Part shown: piece by piece, positions 14,181-64,000 of the stretch
Layout: each line of letters starts with the position of its first letter
Position numbering within the stretch: the first letter of the stretch is position 1
DNA from: an uncultured archaeon
GTDB taxonomy: Archaea; CAYFZR01
Assembly (NCBI GenBank): GCA_964347835.1
Contig: CAYFZR010000032.1
Coordinates: forward strand, 17,814-81,813
Length of the DNA: 64,000 nt
Direction of reading: 5' to 3'
Translations under genes and position numbers: made by a program
Notes under the pieces: model-generated
Databases searched by the model: none
What the model was told of the DNA's origin: nothing
Seen by the model: the letters and a program-made list of their open reading frames with translations, nothing else

Positions 14181-14363
14181 ATGATTCCAGTGGTAGATCA
14201 TGAAAAATGCGATGGCGATGGAATTTGTGTAGATGTATGTCCAACGGAAGTATTTGAACTCGAAGGAGGAAAATCTATCGTCGCTCGCCCAGAAGATTGT
14301 ATAGAGTGCGAAGTATGTATTGACGAATGTCCTCAAGCAGCGATAACGTTAGAAGAAGAATGA
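14181..14363 (+). CDS. fdx: 2x[4Fe-4S] ferredoxin (60 aa)
   Basis: CDGDGICVDVCP and CIECEVCIDECP cluster motifs. Confidence 0.85.
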   Translation: MIPVVDHEKCDGDGICVDVCPTEVFELEGGKSIVARPEDCIECEVCIDECPQAAITLEEE

Positions 14364-14371
14364 TTTGAGAA

Positions 14372-14444
14372 GGGGGTTTTACCTAATTTTATACTGAATT
14401 TATCTTATCCTACCCTATCACCCCCTTTCTAAACCCCCATATAT
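14372..14444 (+). repeat. Copy A of a roughly 72-nt G5/C5-bounded intergenic element (second copy at 57026..57097, about 89% identical)
   Basis: gggggttttacctaattttatactgaatttatcttatcctaccctatcaccccctttctaaacccccatata versus copy B. Confidence 0.7.
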
Positions 14445-14573
14445 GTAGAAACAGCTCCTCTACAGATGAAAAGGAGAAAATTTATCCGAAATTATCTTAT
14501 GGTTCAAACAAAAAATTTTTAAACTCCTAGTTTGGAGATATAGTCGAACCAAGTTAATGAGAGAGAAATAATA

Positions 14574-33956: not shown

Positions 33957-34031
33957 GGGGCCGTGGGGTAGGTTGGTCCATCCTCTCGGACTGGGGGTCC
34001 GGTGACTCGAGTTCAAATCTCGGCGGCCCCA
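33957..34031 (+). tRNA. tRNA-Pro (anticodon GGG), 75 nt, no encoded CCA
   Basis: Hand fold: acceptor GGGGCCG/CGGCCCC, T-arm TCGAG-TTCAAAT-CTCGG, anticodon stem TCGGA/TCCGG, loop CTGGGGG; the D-arm to anticodon junction is 1 nt longer than canonical, so the fold needs tRNAscan confirmation. Confidence 0.7.
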
Positions 34032-34033
34032 TT

Positions 34034-34089
34034 CCACCTTCTGAAAGGTGGATCATCAGGTCGAGTTGCTTCGCAACTCAACAACTCAA
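34034..34089 (+). repeat. Structured repeat unit 1: hairpin CCACCTT-CTGA-AAGGTGG followed by a 39-nt element containing hairpin GAGTTGC-TTCG-GCAACTC
   Basis: gatcatcaggtcgagttgcttcgcaactcaacaactcaa is repeated 38/39 identical at 34187..34225. Confidence 0.7.
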
Positions 34090-34162
34090 CTAGAACTCCT
34101 CGAAAAAACAAAGCAAAATGTATGGGAGTTGTTCTACCTCCGAAGGATGTAGTTCCTTTGAT

Positions 34163-34225
34163 CAACCTTTAATAAAGGTTGAGGTCGATCATTAGGTCGA
34201 GTTGCTTCGCAACTCAACAACTCAA
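34163..34225 (+). repeat. Structured repeat unit 2 (hairpin CAACCTTT-AATA-AAGGTTG plus the 39-nt element) forming the 5' leader of rps2
   Basis: Ends 2 nt before the GGAGAGAG RBS, 15 nt before the S2 ATG at 34241. Confidence 0.7.
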
Positions 34226-34240
34226 ATAAGGAGAGAGAAT

Positions 34241-53322: not shown

Positions 53323-53413
53323 TGCCGGGGGCGGGTTTCGAACCCGCGACCTCCAGGTTTCCCAGGAGACTCTCCCTATGAGCCTGGCGCTCCGCCCCCT
53401 GAGCTACCCCGGC
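53323..53413 (-). tRNA. tRNA-Met or Ile2 (anticodon CAT) with an about 18-nt canonical intron at position 37/38; 91 nt
   Basis: Hand fold of reverse complement: GCCGGGG-TA-GCTC-AGGGGGCG-GAGC-G-CCAGG-CTCATA[GGGAGAGTCTCCTGGGAA]A-CCTGG-AGGTC-GCGGG-TTCGAAA-CCCGC-CCCCGGC-A. Confidence 0.75.
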
Positions 53414-53523
53414 TACCTCAATTTACGTTTACGAGACCGAAACATACCCATATATTTTGTGGTTATATATAAAATTAAAATATAAGGAAAGGAGATATTT
53501 TAGACCTTGGGAGAGGGTGAATT

Positions 53524-54006
53524 TTGAGGTACAAATTGATCTTTCTAATTTTAATAATCTTGGTCGGTAGCTCATTATGCCTTGGTCAAAAGAAAGAGTT
53601 TAAAATAGGAGATATTGTTGAGTTTGGCGATTATAAAATCGTTGTTCATTCTTTAAAAAAGGTTGACACCGTTTATGTTAAGGCAATGGGAGATGAACGA
53701 ATACAGGAAAACGCCAGCAAAGGCACTAAATACATTCTTGTCAACGTAACTCTTAAGAAATATACCTATGAAAACCCTGATAAATCCTTGCGCTTCGAAC
53801 TAAAGGATGCAAACGGAAAAATTTTAATGGAAAAAGGATCGTTCAAAAAACGTTATGTGGGACACTTAGATTTTCAAAATATGGACCCTTACAGCGAGAA
53901 ATCGGGATTTCTGATTTTTCTCGCTGAAGAAGATATAATAGTTAAAGAGTTAGAATGCTGGAAAAAAGGAACCGAGAATCCTGATGTTGTAATAAGTTTA
54001 AGATGA
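53524..54006 (+). CDS. secreted hypothetical protein (signal peptide; DUF4352-like beta-rich)
   Basis: MRYKLIFLILIILVGSSLCLG signal; host-like AT-rich codon usage. Confidence 0.4.
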   Translation: MRYKLIFLILIILVGSSLCLGQKKEFKIGDIVEFGDYKIVVHSLKKVDTVYVKAMGDERIQENASKGTKYILVNVTLKKYTYENPDKSLRFELKDANGKILMEKGSFKKRYVGHLDFQNMDPYSEKSGFLIFLAEEDIIVKELECWKKGTENPDVVISLR

Positions 54007-54126
54007 AAAAATTGAGTCAGGAAAATTAAGTGCAATTGCAATTTGTTTACAAGCATAATTAAAAAAAGATAAGGGAGATTTCTCTCCCCACTTTCAAGAG
54101 ACCCCTATTTCGAAGAATGCCTCGCT

Positions 54127-56436
54127 TCACTGAATGATAAAGGTGGTCGTCACTATACTGGCACTTACATTGAAATTGTAGCCGTCTTTGATGACGTCTA
54201 TCACATTGGCTTTGTATGTTCCCGCTGCTTGAGTTCTCGAGGTCTTCCACTGCATTACCGCATCGCCGTTGGTATCACTGAACCCCTGAAGAGATTTCAC
54301 CACTAAACCGTTGGGATCGGAGATATCTAGGAACACCTGTGCACCGGAGATGGGCACTCGAACTGTATCTACTTCTTCTACGGTGTGGGCCACGATTCCT
54401 ACTGTATCACGCGCCCTGAATGTATCTGTCTGGGTCACCAGATTTCCTCTCTTATCGACTGACCAGGTGGTCAGACTGTCTACGAAGAGATCTGGCATCG
54501 GTGGTGTAACCTTCTTTCCCCATTCTGTGGATGTCATCACGTATGGTTCTGCCATGCCTGTATTCATCCACGCATCCAGCAGGTTTATACCTTCCTCAGC
54601 TAGGAATGGATTCTGACCGTTGTTGCCTAGATAGAGGAACTGTATGTACTCCCAGCTCGTTGGCTGGTAGAGAAGGTCAATAGTCGCGTACACGGCGTGA
54701 GTTGGTGGATTCAGCGTGAACTCGTCCCAGTAGTTATATTTACCGCCTGCTACAGGGTTTCCGTATTGATCCGCTGGCACAGGGAGTGCGTTTCGAATCT
54801 TTGCTTCGTCGAAGCTCATCTCGTAGGGCGGAATGCGGTTGTCCTTGGCAACTTTGTTGTTCAGGACGAAATGGAAGGACTCGTGGTAGGTTCCGGGTGC
54901 CTGAGCCGATAGATTTCCAAGCGTATAGTCCACCGCACCAGTAATGCGGTCGTAGCTCAACGGAAGGTCTGAGCTATATCCAAATCCTATGAGCTGGTTA
55001 GCCCATTCTTGCGTCATGGCATAGTGGGCCTCATATATCTTGGTGTTTGGGTCATTAAGGTCCAAAATGGTTTTTACTTGTGTCGGCGTGCCGCCGATGT
55101 TTACTGTTATATTGCCGTATTTTCCGTCTTCACGCAGGAGTTCTCCGTCACTATCATACCACTTGATACTAAGCCACATCCTGCGTCCTTCTGGATAGCC
55201 AGAGATAAGCTTGTGCCCGGCATGATTGACAACTTTTAGAATGTTACCGCTTAACGAGAGCGTGGCTGCCTCACTTAGCTGCTTCATGGCCCTAGTCTTG
55301 CCGTCATTTAGCGCTGCAATCTGGGTCGAACTGAGATCGCCGCCGATTCTTAGCTTGCCTTGGGCATCTAGATACTGTATTGCGTCTGGCATCCAGTAGT
55401 TGCCACCAGTCATGTCGTGTAGCGGCAAGTCCTTTCTGATCTTCGGGTTCTTGTTGCAGCCCTGGCCGTTCACGGGGCGAAGGTGGCAGGTCTGGCATGT
55501 GTAGTACCTTGGTGTATTGTCCTCGTAATTTCCGCCTGTTCCGGCTAAGATGGCGCTCTCATAACCGGCCTTGAGAGCCCCGTCCTGGAGGTCAACGGGA
55601 AGATTCATGTAATCAGAGACCAGCACAGTGTCCAACATGCTTGCCTTCCACTCACTGTATGTTCTCTCCACAATCCCATACTGATAGGGGAAGTTGTTAA
55701 AGGCCGCCTTTCCTTCTACTGGCGAACCGAGCGTCCCGTTGTATGTTCCAGGCTCAAGCGGTACCTGGGCTCCGTTGTTATGTGCTAAATCACCTACTGC
55801 TGGGTTTGAGACGTCATGGCAAGTTCCGCAGAGATCACCTGAGCGGTAGAACTTGGACTGCAAGAACTGATGCCTGGCTTCTGCGTCGATATATGGTCCC
55901 AGCTTATCAGAGCCATCCCAGAGAACGTACATTCCGCTTCCATAGTATCCGACTAAGTTACCGTCGCTTATATTGTAGGCTATAAACGGTGGATTCTGAA
56001 CACCAATGTGTTCTGATTGGTCAGGATTGGTCAACTTATGGCATAAGTCGCATTCGACGCCGTCTCCATCACTTGGTCTCAATGCTGATCCATCAGTCGG
56101 TGTAGAACGTCCTTCCACCCATCCGGTCACGCTGTGGCAGCGGATGCAAAGATCTCCAGCTCCATCAAAGTCCTGTTCGGCTATAGCCAAAGTCGCCCAG
56201 AATATCGGATCGCGTCCGGCGTTTGCCATCATGCTTCCCCGCCAGTTGTGAGCAGGTTCCACTGTAATGTCATATCCACCGTGGCAGTTGTCGCATTTGT
56301 CGACTGACTCTATATTCCCTACTTCTCCTGGCTGTGTGCCTGGCATCTTGATTTCGTTGGGCACAATATCAGCTGCAAATGCAACAAAACCAACCAAAAG
56401 CATTAAAATCGTTGCTAAAAAAATCCTCTTTTTCAT
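54127..56436 (-). CDS. Multiheme c-type cytochrome (5 CxxCH) with N-terminal signal/TM and about 450-aa heme-free beta-rich C-terminal domain; atypically GC-rich gene
   Basis: CDNCH, CIRCH, CDLCH, CGTCH, CQTCH; N-terminus MKKRIFLATILMLLVGFVAFA; local GC about 50-55% versus about 35% flanks. Confidence 0.8.
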   Translation of the reverse strand: MKKRIFLATILMLLVGFVAFAADIVPNEIKMPGTQPGEVGNIESVDKCDNCHGGYDITVEPAHNWRGSMMANAGRDPIFWATLAIAEQDFDGAGDLCIRCHSVTGWVEGRSTPTDGSALRPSDGDGVECDLCHKLTNPDQSEHIGVQNPPFIAYNISDGNLVGYYGSGMYVLWDGSDKLGPYIDAEARHQFLQSKFYRSGDLCGTCHDVSNPAVGDLAHNNGAQVPLEPGTYNGTLGSPVEGKAAFNNFPYQYGIVERTYSEWKASMLDTVLVSDYMNLPVDLQDGALKAGYESAILAGTGGNYEDNTPRYYTCQTCHLRPVNGQGCNKNPKIRKDLPLHDMTGGNYWMPDAIQYLDAQGKLRIGGDLSSTQIAALNDGKTRAMKQLSEAATLSLSGNILKVVNHAGHKLISGYPEGRRMWLSIKWYDSDGELLREDGKYGNITVNIGGTPTQVKTILDLNDPNTKIYEAHYAMTQEWANQLIGFGYSSDLPLSYDRITGAVDYTLGNLSAQAPGTYHESFHFVLNNKVAKDNRIPPYEMSFDEAKIRNALPVPADQYGNPVAGGKYNYWDEFTLNPPTHAVYATIDLLYQPTSWEYIQFLYLGNNGQNPFLAEEGINLLDAWMNTGMAEPYVMTSTEWGKKVTPPMPDLFVDSLTTWSVDKRGNLVTQTDTFRARDTVGIVAHTVEEVDTVRVPISGAQVFLDISDPNGLVVKSLQGFSDTNGDAVMQWKTSRTQAAGTYKANVIDVIKDGYNFNVSASIVTTTFIIQ

Positions 56437-56490
56437 TCTTTCACCTCCCCAATTTTTTTCTGTCCCCCCCTCTCCTGAGGACGATTCAAT

Positions 56491-56820
56491 CTACTTGAGT
56501 AAATCATAAAGGCTTTTGTAGCCTTTCAAACCGAGTTGGATCATTCCTTTCTTCGGCTCGATGGTGACGTTACCTTCATCATATTCCATCTTGATCGATT
56601 CGATTGGATTATCAGAATTTTTAATATTCGAAAAGGCTGACTCTGTCATGGAAATATTGATGTCTGGATCGCTCGCTTCTCCTTTATGCGTTGCGATTTC
56701 ACCTTTCGTTTTTCTTATTTCTAAAGGCTCACCGTCAACGATCACTTGAACTACGGCGCCGTCTTTGAGCCTATGAAAGCCCAAACTATTTGCCAGATTA
56801 TTTACCTCTTGTTCTATCAT
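56491..56820 (-). CDS. small protein with SCP2-like sterol-carrier fold (hypothetical)
   Basis: Pattern ...VIVDGEPLEIRKTKGE...DPDINISMTESAFSNI...IEPKKGMIQLGLKGY resembles SCP2; co-oriented upstream of the cytochrome. Confidence 0.35.
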   Translation of the reverse strand: MIEQEVNNLANSLGFHRLKDGAVVQVIVDGEPLEIRKTKGEIATHKGEASDPDINISMTESAFSNIKNSDNPIESIKMEYDEGNVTIEPKKGMIQLGLKGYKSLYDLLK

Positions 56821-56913
56821 CTATTTCAATGGGAAATATAATGTAATATATAAATTTAACCTATTTTCTCCCGATAAGTGAGTAATATGTAGAAGAAGGT
56901 TTTAATACATTTT

Positions 56914-56959
56914 ATATCTTAATTATATTATTCTACATATCTTAATTATATTATTCTAC
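56914..56959 (+). repeat. Perfect tandem duplication of a 23-bp AT-rich unit atatcttaattatattattctac
   Basis: Two exact, adjacent copies; about 95-140 bp upstream of the minus-strand SCP2-like gene. Confidence 0.8.
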
Positions 56960-57025
56960 CTTACGCACCAAAATCATAGATTTTTGACGCGCTAATAATC
57001 GAAGATTATTGTGCATCGTCCAGAA

Positions 57026-57097
57026 GGGGGTTTTACTTAATCTTATACTGAAATTATCCTATCTTACCTTATCACCCCCTCTCTACACCCCCATATA
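57026..57097 (+). repeat. Copy B of the 72-nt G5/C5-bounded intergenic element (copy A at 14372..14444)
   Basis: gggggttttacttaatcttatactgaaattatcctatcttaccttatcaccccctctctacacccccatata; followed by perfect palindrome gggggtaattaccccc at 57101..57116. Confidence 0.7.
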
Positions 57098-57320
57098 AAG
57101 AAGGGGGTAATTACCCCCTTTCTAATCCCCCACATAATATTTAGAGTAGAAAGCAAATTTAGAGTAGATAACGACTTATTCGGTACCGTTAATAAAATAA
57201 TTTTCTTTTGATCGAACTTTTCTTAAAAGTTCGTTGCGGATTGCCGTTTTTTTGATAAAACTTTTTTCTAAAAAGTTTTGATGGAACGAGCCACGTTCCA
57301 AAGCGAGCCACGCTGCATTT

Positions 57321-57650
57321 TTATTTCTTCTTTTTCTTGTATTTCTTTTCAAGATTGCTGATCTGTCTTTCTAGCCTTCTCAACTCTTCCATGATCTCCT
57401 CAGTTGTGTGTTCCACTAACTGTTCTTCTACTTTTGAAACCCTTTTTTCTAACTCTTCTTCCACTCTTTTCAATTCATATAAATCAAAAACAATTTTTTC
57501 AATTTTCTTCTGCCTGGGCACTATCTCTTCGTCAAAAAACGTTACCTGCTCTTTCAACGTAGAAATTTCTTTTTCCAATATATGTATAATTTCTATTACA
57601 TGTTTGAGATTGGTTTGTAACTTTTCGACGTTTATCTCGTTGACCTTCAT
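57321..57650 (-). CDS. coiled-coil protein, hypothetical (K-rich C-terminus)
   Basis: Heptad-rich, 109 aa. Confidence 0.4.
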   Translation of the reverse strand: MKVNEINVEKLQTNLKHVIEIIHILEKEISTLKEQVTFFDEEIVPRQKKIEKIVFDLYELKRVEEELEKRVSKVEEQLVEHTTEEIMEELRRLERQISNLEKKYKKKKK

Positions 57651-62946: not shown

Positions 62947-64000
62947 TTGAGGAGTATAATCTTTATTTTGGTAATAGCGATCATTGCCATGCCGTTTGCG
63001 CTTTGTTTTAACGGGATATATCCTACAATAACACCAGTTCCTAAACCAACATTCCCGCCTCTAACCACAACGCCGCCTCCACTCCCGACTCCTCCTCCTA
63101 CAACAACTCCTCCTCCTACAACAACGCCGCCTCCGACATTACCACCAGCAAAACCAGATTTAAGAGTTACAGAAATATCATGGAGTCCTACTACCCCTTA
63201 CACAGCTCAACCTACAATCATAAGGGTTAAAGTGAAAAACTCGGGCACTAAAAGCGCGATGGCATACGTAAAGATCTACATAGGACGAATAATTTGTGGA
63301 AAATCTTTAGGAACTCTAGGACCGGGAGATGCTGGGACATTAACTTTTTCTGGTTGCGTCATTTCATTCTCCGCTCCAGGAACCTATTCAATAACCGCAA
63401 TTGTAGACCCTGATGATGATGTAGCAGAGTCGAACGAGGGTAACAACGAGGAAACCAGAGAAATAACGGTAAAAGAGGAAATTAAGGGTGGAATAAAGGG
63501 GACAGTTCTCTGCGGAGGAAATCCCTTGTCCAACGCTCAACTTACTATAACGGGTCCGAGTCCTTCTACTGCGATAGCATGGTCAGGCTTTTCAGATGCA
63601 GCAGGAAATTATGATACGGGCTTAACTCTCTCTCCAGGCACGTATAAAGTTATTATAGCCAAGTCAGGTATAAGTTTCACGCCCACAACCGTCACGTTAT
63701 CCGTCAATCCAAATCTCTATTCTACTCAAAACTTCGCGTGCGTAGAATTAGAGGAAAAAGGAGGAATAAAAGGAACAGTACTCTGCGGAGGAAATCCCTT
63801 GTCCAATGCTCAACTTACTATAACGGGACCGAGTCCTTCTACTGCGATAGCATGGTCTGGGTTTACTGATTCAGCGGGAAGTTACGATACAGGTCTAACT
63901 CTCTCTAAAGGCACATACACGGTAAAAGTAAGCTTTACAGGACAAAGTTTTACTCCATCTCCGGGTACCGTAATAGTTAGTTCAAATAATTATGCGATTC
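62947..64000 (+). CDS. Secreted surface protein (3'-partial at window end): signal peptide, P/T-rich linker, CARDB domain, then tandem 91-aa Cna-B/carboxypeptidase-regulatory-like repeats
   Basis: TTG start after GGAGGGG RBS (not in track); TTTPPPLPTPPPTTTPPPTTTPPP linker; CARDB hallmark DLRVTEISW...VDPDDDVAESNEGNNE; repeats GGIKGTVLCGGNPLSNAQLTITGPSPSTAIAWSGF. Confidence 0.6.
   Translation, partial: MRSIIFILVIAIIAMPFALCFNGIYPTITPVPKPTFPPLTTTPPPLPTPPPTTTPPPTTTPPPTLPPAKPDLRVTEISWSPTTPYTAQPTIIRVKVKNSGTKSAMAYVKIYIGRIICGKSLGTLGPGDAGTLTFSGCVISFSAPGTYSITAIVDPDDDVAESNEGNNEETREITVKEEIKGGIKGTVLCGGNPLSNAQLTITGPSPSTAIAWSGFSDAAGNYDTGLTLSPGTYKVIIAKSGISFTPTTVTLSVNPNLYSTQNFACVELEEKGGIKGTVLCGGNPLSNAQLTITGPSPSTAIAWSGFTDSAGSYDTGLTLSKGTYTVKVSFTGQSFTPSPGTVIVSSNNYAI
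63487..64000 (+). repeat. Intragenic tandem repeat, period 273 bp (copy 2 from 63760 runs off the window), first about 100 nt of each copy nearly identical
   Basis: ggtggaataaaggggacagttctctgcggaggaaatcccttgtccaacgctcaacttactataacggg versus ggaggaataaaaggaacagtactctgcggaggaaatcccttgtccaatgctcaacttactataacggg. Confidence 0.8.

Follow-up and report, generated by a model that had tools for sequence, protein, structure and literature searches.

What is a stretch of about 72 nt, bounded by runs of five G and five C, doing at two distant intergenic places in the DNA of an uncultured archaeon, and is it a mobile repeat, the gene of a small structured RNA or a regulatory module shared by the genes beside it? 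The window analysed here, a stretch of 64,000 nt, is archaeal and AT-rich (GC ~37-38%), and its IscS protein shares 87% identity with the one encoded by a 'Candidatus Hydrothermarchaeota archaeon' MAG, whose gene order is also that of the window; this MAG (b3.sp1_bin.60) represents what we call the sister species. To our knowledge, metagenomes are the sole source of information on the Hydrothermarchaeota, and no description of their mobile DNA was found in the literature that we searched. We conclude, with moderate confidence, that both stretches represent a dispersed, MITE-like repeat that is non-autonomous and specific to the lineage.

The pair had been described as about 72 nt long and about 89% identical, and this was borne out: it is a direct repeat (14368-14443 versus 57022-57097) of 76 nt and 89% identity, which reaches 4 nt (AGAA) further 5' than first described. 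Each half of the consensus, searched through the whole window with up to 3 mismatches, matched at the element copies alone where 0 matches were expected (100 shuffles), so the repeat is real and not a product of chance; similarly, CCCCC-N8-CCCCC occurs at 3 sites in the 64 kb, all inside element copies (0.18 expected). An alignment of seven full copies (A4, drawn from the window copies A and B and from the loci L004, L006 and L008 described below) defines a unit of ~65-76 bp. Its left end, (T)AGAAGGGGG, is identical in all seven, and is followed by an AT-rich core of ~44 nt, TTTTA..TTATACTGAA.TTA..TA.CYTATCA, which is 63-86% identical between full copies, and by a right end, CCCCCTYTCTA-MACCC(CC)ATATA, in which a second C5 box precedes ATATA. 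The first 10-11 nt of this right end (CCCCCTYTCTA) repeat the left end in inverted form, with a single base added, and the two pair as terminal inverted repeats of 9-12 bp with a 1-nt bulge, invariant in the seven copies; the G5/C5 pairing that had been proposed to close a stem thus exists, and extends to AGAAGGGGG / CCCCCTYTCT. The unit is non-coding, with stop codons in all frames on both strands, and all copies lie between ORFs. Its right module comes in two linked variants, CTTTCTAAAC and CTCTCTACAC, each found in both species. We also observed that every cluster with two full or mini units has one unit of each variant (L004 CC->TA, L006 TA->CC, window B CC->TA-like), a pattern that with n=3 is not significant.

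The window holds four copies: A, B, a mini copy and a decayed copy (Table 1). Copy A starts 4 nt past the ferredoxin stop codon (14361-14363). Downstream of copy B, the sequence noted earlier as a perfect palindrome, GGGGGTAATTACCCCC, is indeed there, but its reading changes, since it belongs to a third copy of the unit that has lost its core and kept both ends, and which a bacterial-type promoter/terminator scan, otherwise uninformative, flagged as a hairpin. The decayed unit has lost its G5 and C5 runs and carries an internal 23-nt tandem duplication (56914-56936 = 56937-56959).

Table 1. Features of the repeat family; positions are those of the window unless another locus is named.
Feature	Position	Strand	Remark
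Copy A, full solo unit	14368..14443	+	nhmmer E 1e-23
Copy A, left inverted repeat AGAAGGGGG	14368-14376	+	
Copy A, AT-rich core	14377-14420	+	
Copy A, right inverted repeat CCCCCTTTCTA	14421-14431	+	
Copy A, outer C5 box and ATATA	14432-14443	+	
TAGA 3' of copy A	14446-14449		
Intergenic block at site B, missing from the sister species	56836..57317	.	~480 nt
Decayed unit, TAGAAGAAGGTTTTAATACATTTTATA...CTTACGCACC	56890..56969	+	nhmmer E ~0.03 at 56889-56936
Copy B, full unit, right-end variant CCCCCTCTCTACACCCCC	57022..57097	+	nhmmer E 1e-24
Mini copy without core, AGAAGGGGG-TAATTA-CCCCCTTTCTAATCCCCCACATA	57099..57136	+	TAGA follows at 57142-57145
Tail with GTTAATAAAATAATTTTC, hairpins and T-runs	57137..57314	+	partly homologous to sequence downstream of the L004 and L006 clusters
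AGCCA-loop hairpin sites	57282-57314; L004 5616-5636; L006 5192-5208; L008 6539-6580		

A pattern search for more copies, as suggested in the preliminary description, found them at unrelated loci of the same organism and of the sister species. When species-representative genomes were scanned with the right-end pattern, two loci were found in the sister MAG: L004, with two head-to-tail units at a period of 70 nt, and L006, with a full, a decayed and a second full unit; with the strict 3' pattern, these are the only two loci in the whole of that MAG. A further match to the right-end pattern, in a Lachnospiraceae MAG (L005), proved to be a chance match. The scan of metagenomes returned contigs of the window organism only, and one of them, L008, is another contig of that organism in which a 5'-half unit precedes a full unit that lies at the contig end. 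The known loci are three in the window organism and two in the sister species, and the derivative copies among them are core-deleted, reduced to the 5' half or decayed.

Assemblies of the same organism tend to break at these units. In three other, independent assemblies (GCA_012974985.1, GCA_012974965.1 and Logan ERR2564004), four contig ends or N-gaps lie at or beside the element: the Ns of L001 (1195-1205) begin inside a right end, L002 starts just past copy A, L003/L007 end at the mini copy of B, and L008 ends within a right end. Such breaks are the usual signature of a multi-copy repeat in short-read assemblies. Among viral contigs, one search pattern gave 0 matches, and the four matches to a second pattern were unrelated, being one sequence common to four viral contigs of 55-57% GC; BLAST against plasmids and phages gave no match. 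No transposase was found in the window, and none of the AGAAGGGGG/CCCCCTTCT pairs, in the window or in the other loci retrieved, bounds a larger element. Copies A and B were also considered as the att sites of a 42.6-kb integrated element. This idea was dropped: between the two lie housekeeping genes (LeuRS, AlaRS, ribosomal proteins), whose order the sister species shares.

TAGA stands 2-5 nt past the ATA at all four cluster 3' ends (chance ~3e-6) and starts three of the four cluster 5' ends, the two sides of copy A differing (GAGA versus TAGA). This pattern is ambiguous: it fits a 4-bp target duplication, and it fits equally well TAGA being the first 4 nt of the unit, or of an aborted next unit. 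The tandem junctions in L004 and L006 both read ACCC followed across the junction by TAGAAGGGGG, and GTAGAA recurs at unit starts and in flanks. The copies do not group by species, with core identities of 68-84% between species and 63-86% within, and the best cross-species pair (L008_2 versus L006_1) is 90% identical over the unit. While ordinary spacers of the two species are unalignable, the core is ~77% conserved between them, and the family may accordingly have stayed alike in any of three ways: competent masters that go on being copied, exchange between the two species, or selection for a function.

The occupancy of both window sites differs between these close relatives. At site A, gene order in the sister species is unchanged, ferredoxin-TusA-DsrE-IscS-NifU (locus L009), and the ferredoxin-tusA spacer is of almost the same length (209 nt, against 210 nt in the window). 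Since the lengths are nearly equal, a remnant of the element was looked for: a model of the unit found no match in the sister spacer, and the local alignment that might have marked a decayed copy there was equalled or beaten by 653 of 1000 shuffles and was rejected. What the sister does conserve is AAAAAAYTTTTAAA, ~50 nt upstream of tusA, together with a TCGAAC box. The AAAAAATTTTT run (14510-14523), first noted downstream of copy A, belongs to this promoter-like motif, which is conserved in the element-less sister.

At site B, the genes 56491-56820 and 57321-57650 have orthologues in the sister species (68% and 82% identical) that lie 14 nt apart, against 500 nt in the window, and the difference corresponds to an intergenic block that opens with a TTTATATA-bearing stretch and the decayed unit; after a spacer come copy B and the mini copy, and a hairpin-rich tail closes it. 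Either an insertion here or a deletion in the sister would account for the difference. If it was an insertion, it was not a simple one-unit event, since the block of ~480 bp exceeds the TAGA...TAGA interval. Its left ~50 nt contain a consensus archaeal TATA box, TTTATATA (56847-56854, minus strand), 27 nt ahead of the start codon (ATG) of gene 56491-56820; because this box lies within DNA missing from the sister, the separated gene may owe its promoter to the inserted DNA. For the L004 locus of the sister, a database search for the window-organism orthologue of its V-ATPase subunit I did not find one, the next match being 45% identical.

Prokaryotic MITEs are shorter than 500 bp, have TIRs of 4-30 bp, are AT-rich and intergenic and occur in several copies (PMC10969869), and the family described here shares with them its size and non-coding nature, its TIRs, its AT-rich intergenic setting, its multicopy dispersal and its presence or absence at orthologous sites. 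Among the candidates put forward at the outset, a MITE-like repeat fits best, given the terminal inverted repeats, the non-coding sequence, the dispersal in two species, the derivative copies, the two orthologous sites unoccupied in the sister and the contig breaks. We infer that the family would transpose in trans: a transposase or recombinase encoded elsewhere in the genome would recognise the G5-box ends, and units would be moved or copied into AT-rich intergenic DNA, often next to resident copies, so that short tandem clusters could form whose members would then decay or lose their core. At B, the repeats lie within the ~480-bp intergenic block that parts two genes adjacent in the sister. 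Against this reading, no autonomous element or transposase with matching ends was found in the window, and only a handful of loci are known in either species, so that the copy number may be low. A further point is the conservation of the core where neutral spacers are scrambled, which could reflect selection for a host function rather than transposition alone.

The family has close analogues among known repeats. SM1 of Sulfolobus is shorter than 100 bp, and the SM1-SM4 elements of Sulfolobus solfataricus are likewise small, non-coding, AT-rich, intergenic and multicopy, with terminal inverted repeats and an archaeal host. In the account of Redder, She & Garrett (2001) cited in PMC10969869, their partner IS elements have been identified, and they number 25-44 copies per genome. 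The present family, in contrast, has a handful of known loci, no known partner, frequent head-to-tail clusters and an extra C5 box on its right end. The REP/BIME sequences associated with RAYTs, which are known from bacteria, are imperfect palindromes of 20-40 nt with a conserved GTAG head; they are paired in inverted orientation, and the genome that carries them has a RAYT gene. The units described here resemble these REP/BIME sequences (RAYT, IS200/IS605-type Y1) in being very short, G/C-stemmed and palindromic, intergenic or 3'-flanking, and single or clustered, and the likeness is closest in the core-less mini copy (a 25-nt palindrome) and in GTAGAA at unit starts and flanks, which recalls the REP GTAG motif. 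However, REPs lack anything like the 44-nt unpaired core, and BIME units alternate in inverted orientation whereas the clusters here are direct, head to tail. Correia elements of Neisseria, ERIC and RUP-type MITEs are longer (100-160 bp), with long TIRs and well-defined duplications of TA or similar (PMC10969869). They too are intergenic repeats bounded by inverted repeats, and can carry promoter- or terminator-like signals and alter the expression of neighbouring genes, but they have no sequence similarity to the G5/C5 family, for which the plasmid, phage and viral collections yielded nothing related. The PATE elements of Haloquadratum walsbyi reportedly derive from IS200/IS605 ends and have subterminal hairpins and no TIRs; they are archaeal, non-autonomous, intergenic and hairpin-forming at their ends as well, whereas the ends here are true terminal inverted repeats. 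Finally, the ORB elements of archaeal origins combine a dyad with a G-string, stand as inverted copies around an AT-rich unwinding region and lie next to orc1/cdc6. This candidate is not supported: the units do have G5 runs but lack a dyad of the ORB type, they occupy several loci per genome, and no orc1/cdc6 gene was seen among the neighbours of the copies.

The main alternative, unlikely though not negligible, is that each copy is a REP-like stem-loop module acting in cis and kept for host function, its 9-12-bp G/C-rich stem protecting or terminating mRNAs in 3' UTRs; in a wider form of this view, the cluster with its tail block would be a portable terminator/promoter cassette between genes. 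Consistent with this, three of the five loci (A, L004 and L006) begin 0-5 nt past the stop codon of an ORF on the same strand, L004 following a 22-codon ORF and the L006 unit containing the TAG stop of its ORF. Tail hairpins in the window and in L004 stand directly 3' of the stop of a minus-strand gene and are followed by T-runs, the ends are fully and the core largely conserved between species whose neutral spacers are unalignable (100% and ~77%), and the B block places TTTATATA just upstream of the separated downstream gene. Yet the orientation of units relative to neighbouring genes varies, copy B and L008 being antisense to both neighbours, and the orthologous genes of the sister do without the element. 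No covariation is seen in the stem, the fold of a single copy is no more stable than that of shuffled sequences (z +0.25 for the plus strand and +1.6 for the minus strand), and archaeal termination uses oligo-T, of which the unit has T3-T4 runs only. Moreover, the REP-like reading covers how a copy may act, and not dispersal, truncation and clustering, so it is compatible with a mobile origin.

The tail raises a related question. In the window it ends in two hairpins with an AGCCA loop (57282-57300 and 57302-57314), which lie immediately 3' of the stop codon of gene 57321-57650, on the minus strand, and the sequence that L004, L006 and window B share past their clusters reads ..GTTTAGAAC.., TCTCAGTAATAAAATAATTTTT.ATAAAATTGCGGATG. 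The AGCCA loop is constant over these three loci, while the stem differs at three pairs, each of them compensated (GGAGCA/TGCTCC in L004, GCAACG/CGTTGC in L006 and GGAACG/CGTTCC in the window). An HMM built from the two sister tails matches the window at 57255-57303 (E 1e-3) and also one place in L008 away from the units (E 6e-4), and a similar upstream motif, ATAAAATAAT.TTTGATAA.ATTG.GG.TG, has a single occurrence in L008, at a distance from all units. Matches to the ATAAAATAAT motif at window 28508 and L006 3644 were discarded as plain AT-rich coincidences. At the sister orthologue of the window gene, a hairpin of the AGCCA type is absent. With three to four instances, the tail hairpin is a lead: it may be a second small module, terminator-like or RNA, that travels with the units. 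More speculatively, and in our view rather improbably, the units would be part of a portable intergenic cassette, composed of tandem G5-box units and a tail of ~130-180 nt with the covarying AGCCA hairpin, that moves as a block and rewires transcription. If so, at B it would have separated two genes that form one contiguous unit in the sister, providing terminator signals (hairpins and T-runs) for the upstream gene and the consensus TTTATATA promoter for the downstream one, and the conservation of core and tail across species would point to selection for a module that works as an RNA or binds protein, and not to transposition alone.

That the units are a family of small structured ncRNA genes, with either a gene in every unit or a single RNA for a cluster and its tail, is improbable. 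A closing stem does exist, the minus-strand ...ATATAAAA end resembles a TATA-like box (TTTTATAT) facing into the unit, and the tail hairpin combines three compensatory pair changes with a constant AGCCA loop at three loci. However, folding of either strand gave only the 9-12-bp terminal stem around an unstructured loop, the alignment of seven copies revealed no conserved fold in the AT-rich core, and RNAalifold on these copies found a compensatory change in 0 of 13 predicted pairs; as the terminal stem is the same in every copy, the 13 pairs carry no information on this point. With Rfam 15 at gathering thresholds, only three tRNAs passed in the whole window, and in E-value mode both window loci and L006 returned noise only. 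The best sub-threshold match was CRISPR-DR65, on one copy only (28.7 bits against a gathering threshold of 43), and it was rejected. Inspection of the unit showed no C/D or H/ACA boxes, single-copy fold z-scores are not significant, and truncated and core-less copies are hard to reconcile with an RNA gene. The structured-RNA candidate has no positive support, and the orientation of the units relative to genes is variable.

We consider it very unlikely that the copies are a shared operator, that is, sites for one transcription factor co-regulating tusA-iscS and the genes near copy B. Each unit does carry three G5 boxes with conserved flanks, copy A lies upstream of tusA, and a candidate TATCAC half-site in the unit resembles the TrmB-family motif. 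But the earlier suggestion that copy A regulates tusA-iscS is not supported, as the sister keeps the tusA-dsrE-iscS-nifU order and the promoter-like motif with no detectable copy. Since AAAAAAYTTTTAAA and TCGAAC are kept there without the element, the likely tusA promoter is independent of it, and copy A itself is ~70 nt upstream of the promoter-like motif, abutting the previous gene's stop codon. The neighbours at the five loci are functionally unrelated: ferredoxin/TusA-DsrE-IscS-NifU; V-ATPase subunits K and I; MobB; a metallo-beta-lactamase-fold protein; and a coiled-coil protein with MutS2. A TrmB-type operator in particular is unsupported by anatomy or context.

The remaining explanations are excluded: chance similarity by the zero matches expected in shuffles; a recent local segmental duplication carrying its flanks, a possibility raised in the preliminary description, by similarity that ends at the unit borders and by copies on other contigs and in another species; and a degenerate CRISPR-like array, suggested by the 70-77-nt unit period, which resembles repeat plus spacer, and by the weak CRISPR-DR65 match on one core, by would-be spacers that are the most conserved part, by the homology of all 'repeats', and indeed of every part of the unit, to each other, and by the lack of cas genes near any copy seen.

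The family, read as a MITE-like repeat, is new in sequence and comes from an archaeal lineage of which little is known, but as an object it is of an ordinary kind. A partner IS with ends beginning AGAAGGGGGT would be expected if this reading is true, and the family then offers a handle for finding the transposase that recognises G5-box ends. It explains the fragmentation of assemblies at particular intergenic sites, helps in scaffolding these MAGs, and can be used as a marker of strain-level variation. Since the repeats at copy B coincide with the split of a two-gene unit, the family may also contribute to operon remodelling. The general understanding of archaeal biology is unchanged by it, and its interest lies mainly in MAG assembly and evolution and in the possible operon-splitting cassette at B.

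Several other features of the window were observed along the way. A tRNA-Pro gene with an intron (91 nt, 53323-53413, minus strand) is nearly base-for-base the same in the sister (L013, ~100-193); its anticodon is called by ARAGORN as AGG, which is unusual and may be an artefact of intron placement. Beside it, a region of ~3 kb (53469-56490) contains a DUF4352 protein (53524-54006, plus strand) and, on the minus strand (54127-56436), a protein of 769 aa that has five CxxCH haem motifs, and the 54-56 kb stretch with this cytochrome gene has a GC content of 49%, against ~37% elsewhere. The region is missing from the sister, where the tRNA-Pro lies 48 nt from the orthologue of gene 56491-56820, and it is likely a horizontally acquired insertion beside the tRNA promoter. 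Elsewhere, two 47-nt copies (34046-34092 and 34182-34228; 94% identical, 136 nt apart, with the hairpin GAGTTGC-TTC-GCAACTC) sit between tRNA-Pro(GGG) (33957-34031) and a putative ribosomal protein S2 gene, assigned from its N-terminal sequence; this pair (34046-34228) is unrelated to the G5/C5 family. Near the window end, a repeat with an 18-nt period, CAACAACTCCTCCTCCTA-like (63047-63134), and a tandem pair of 244 nt, 75% identical at a spacing of 273 nt and reaching the window end (63484-64000), are probably coding repeats of a surface-type protein.
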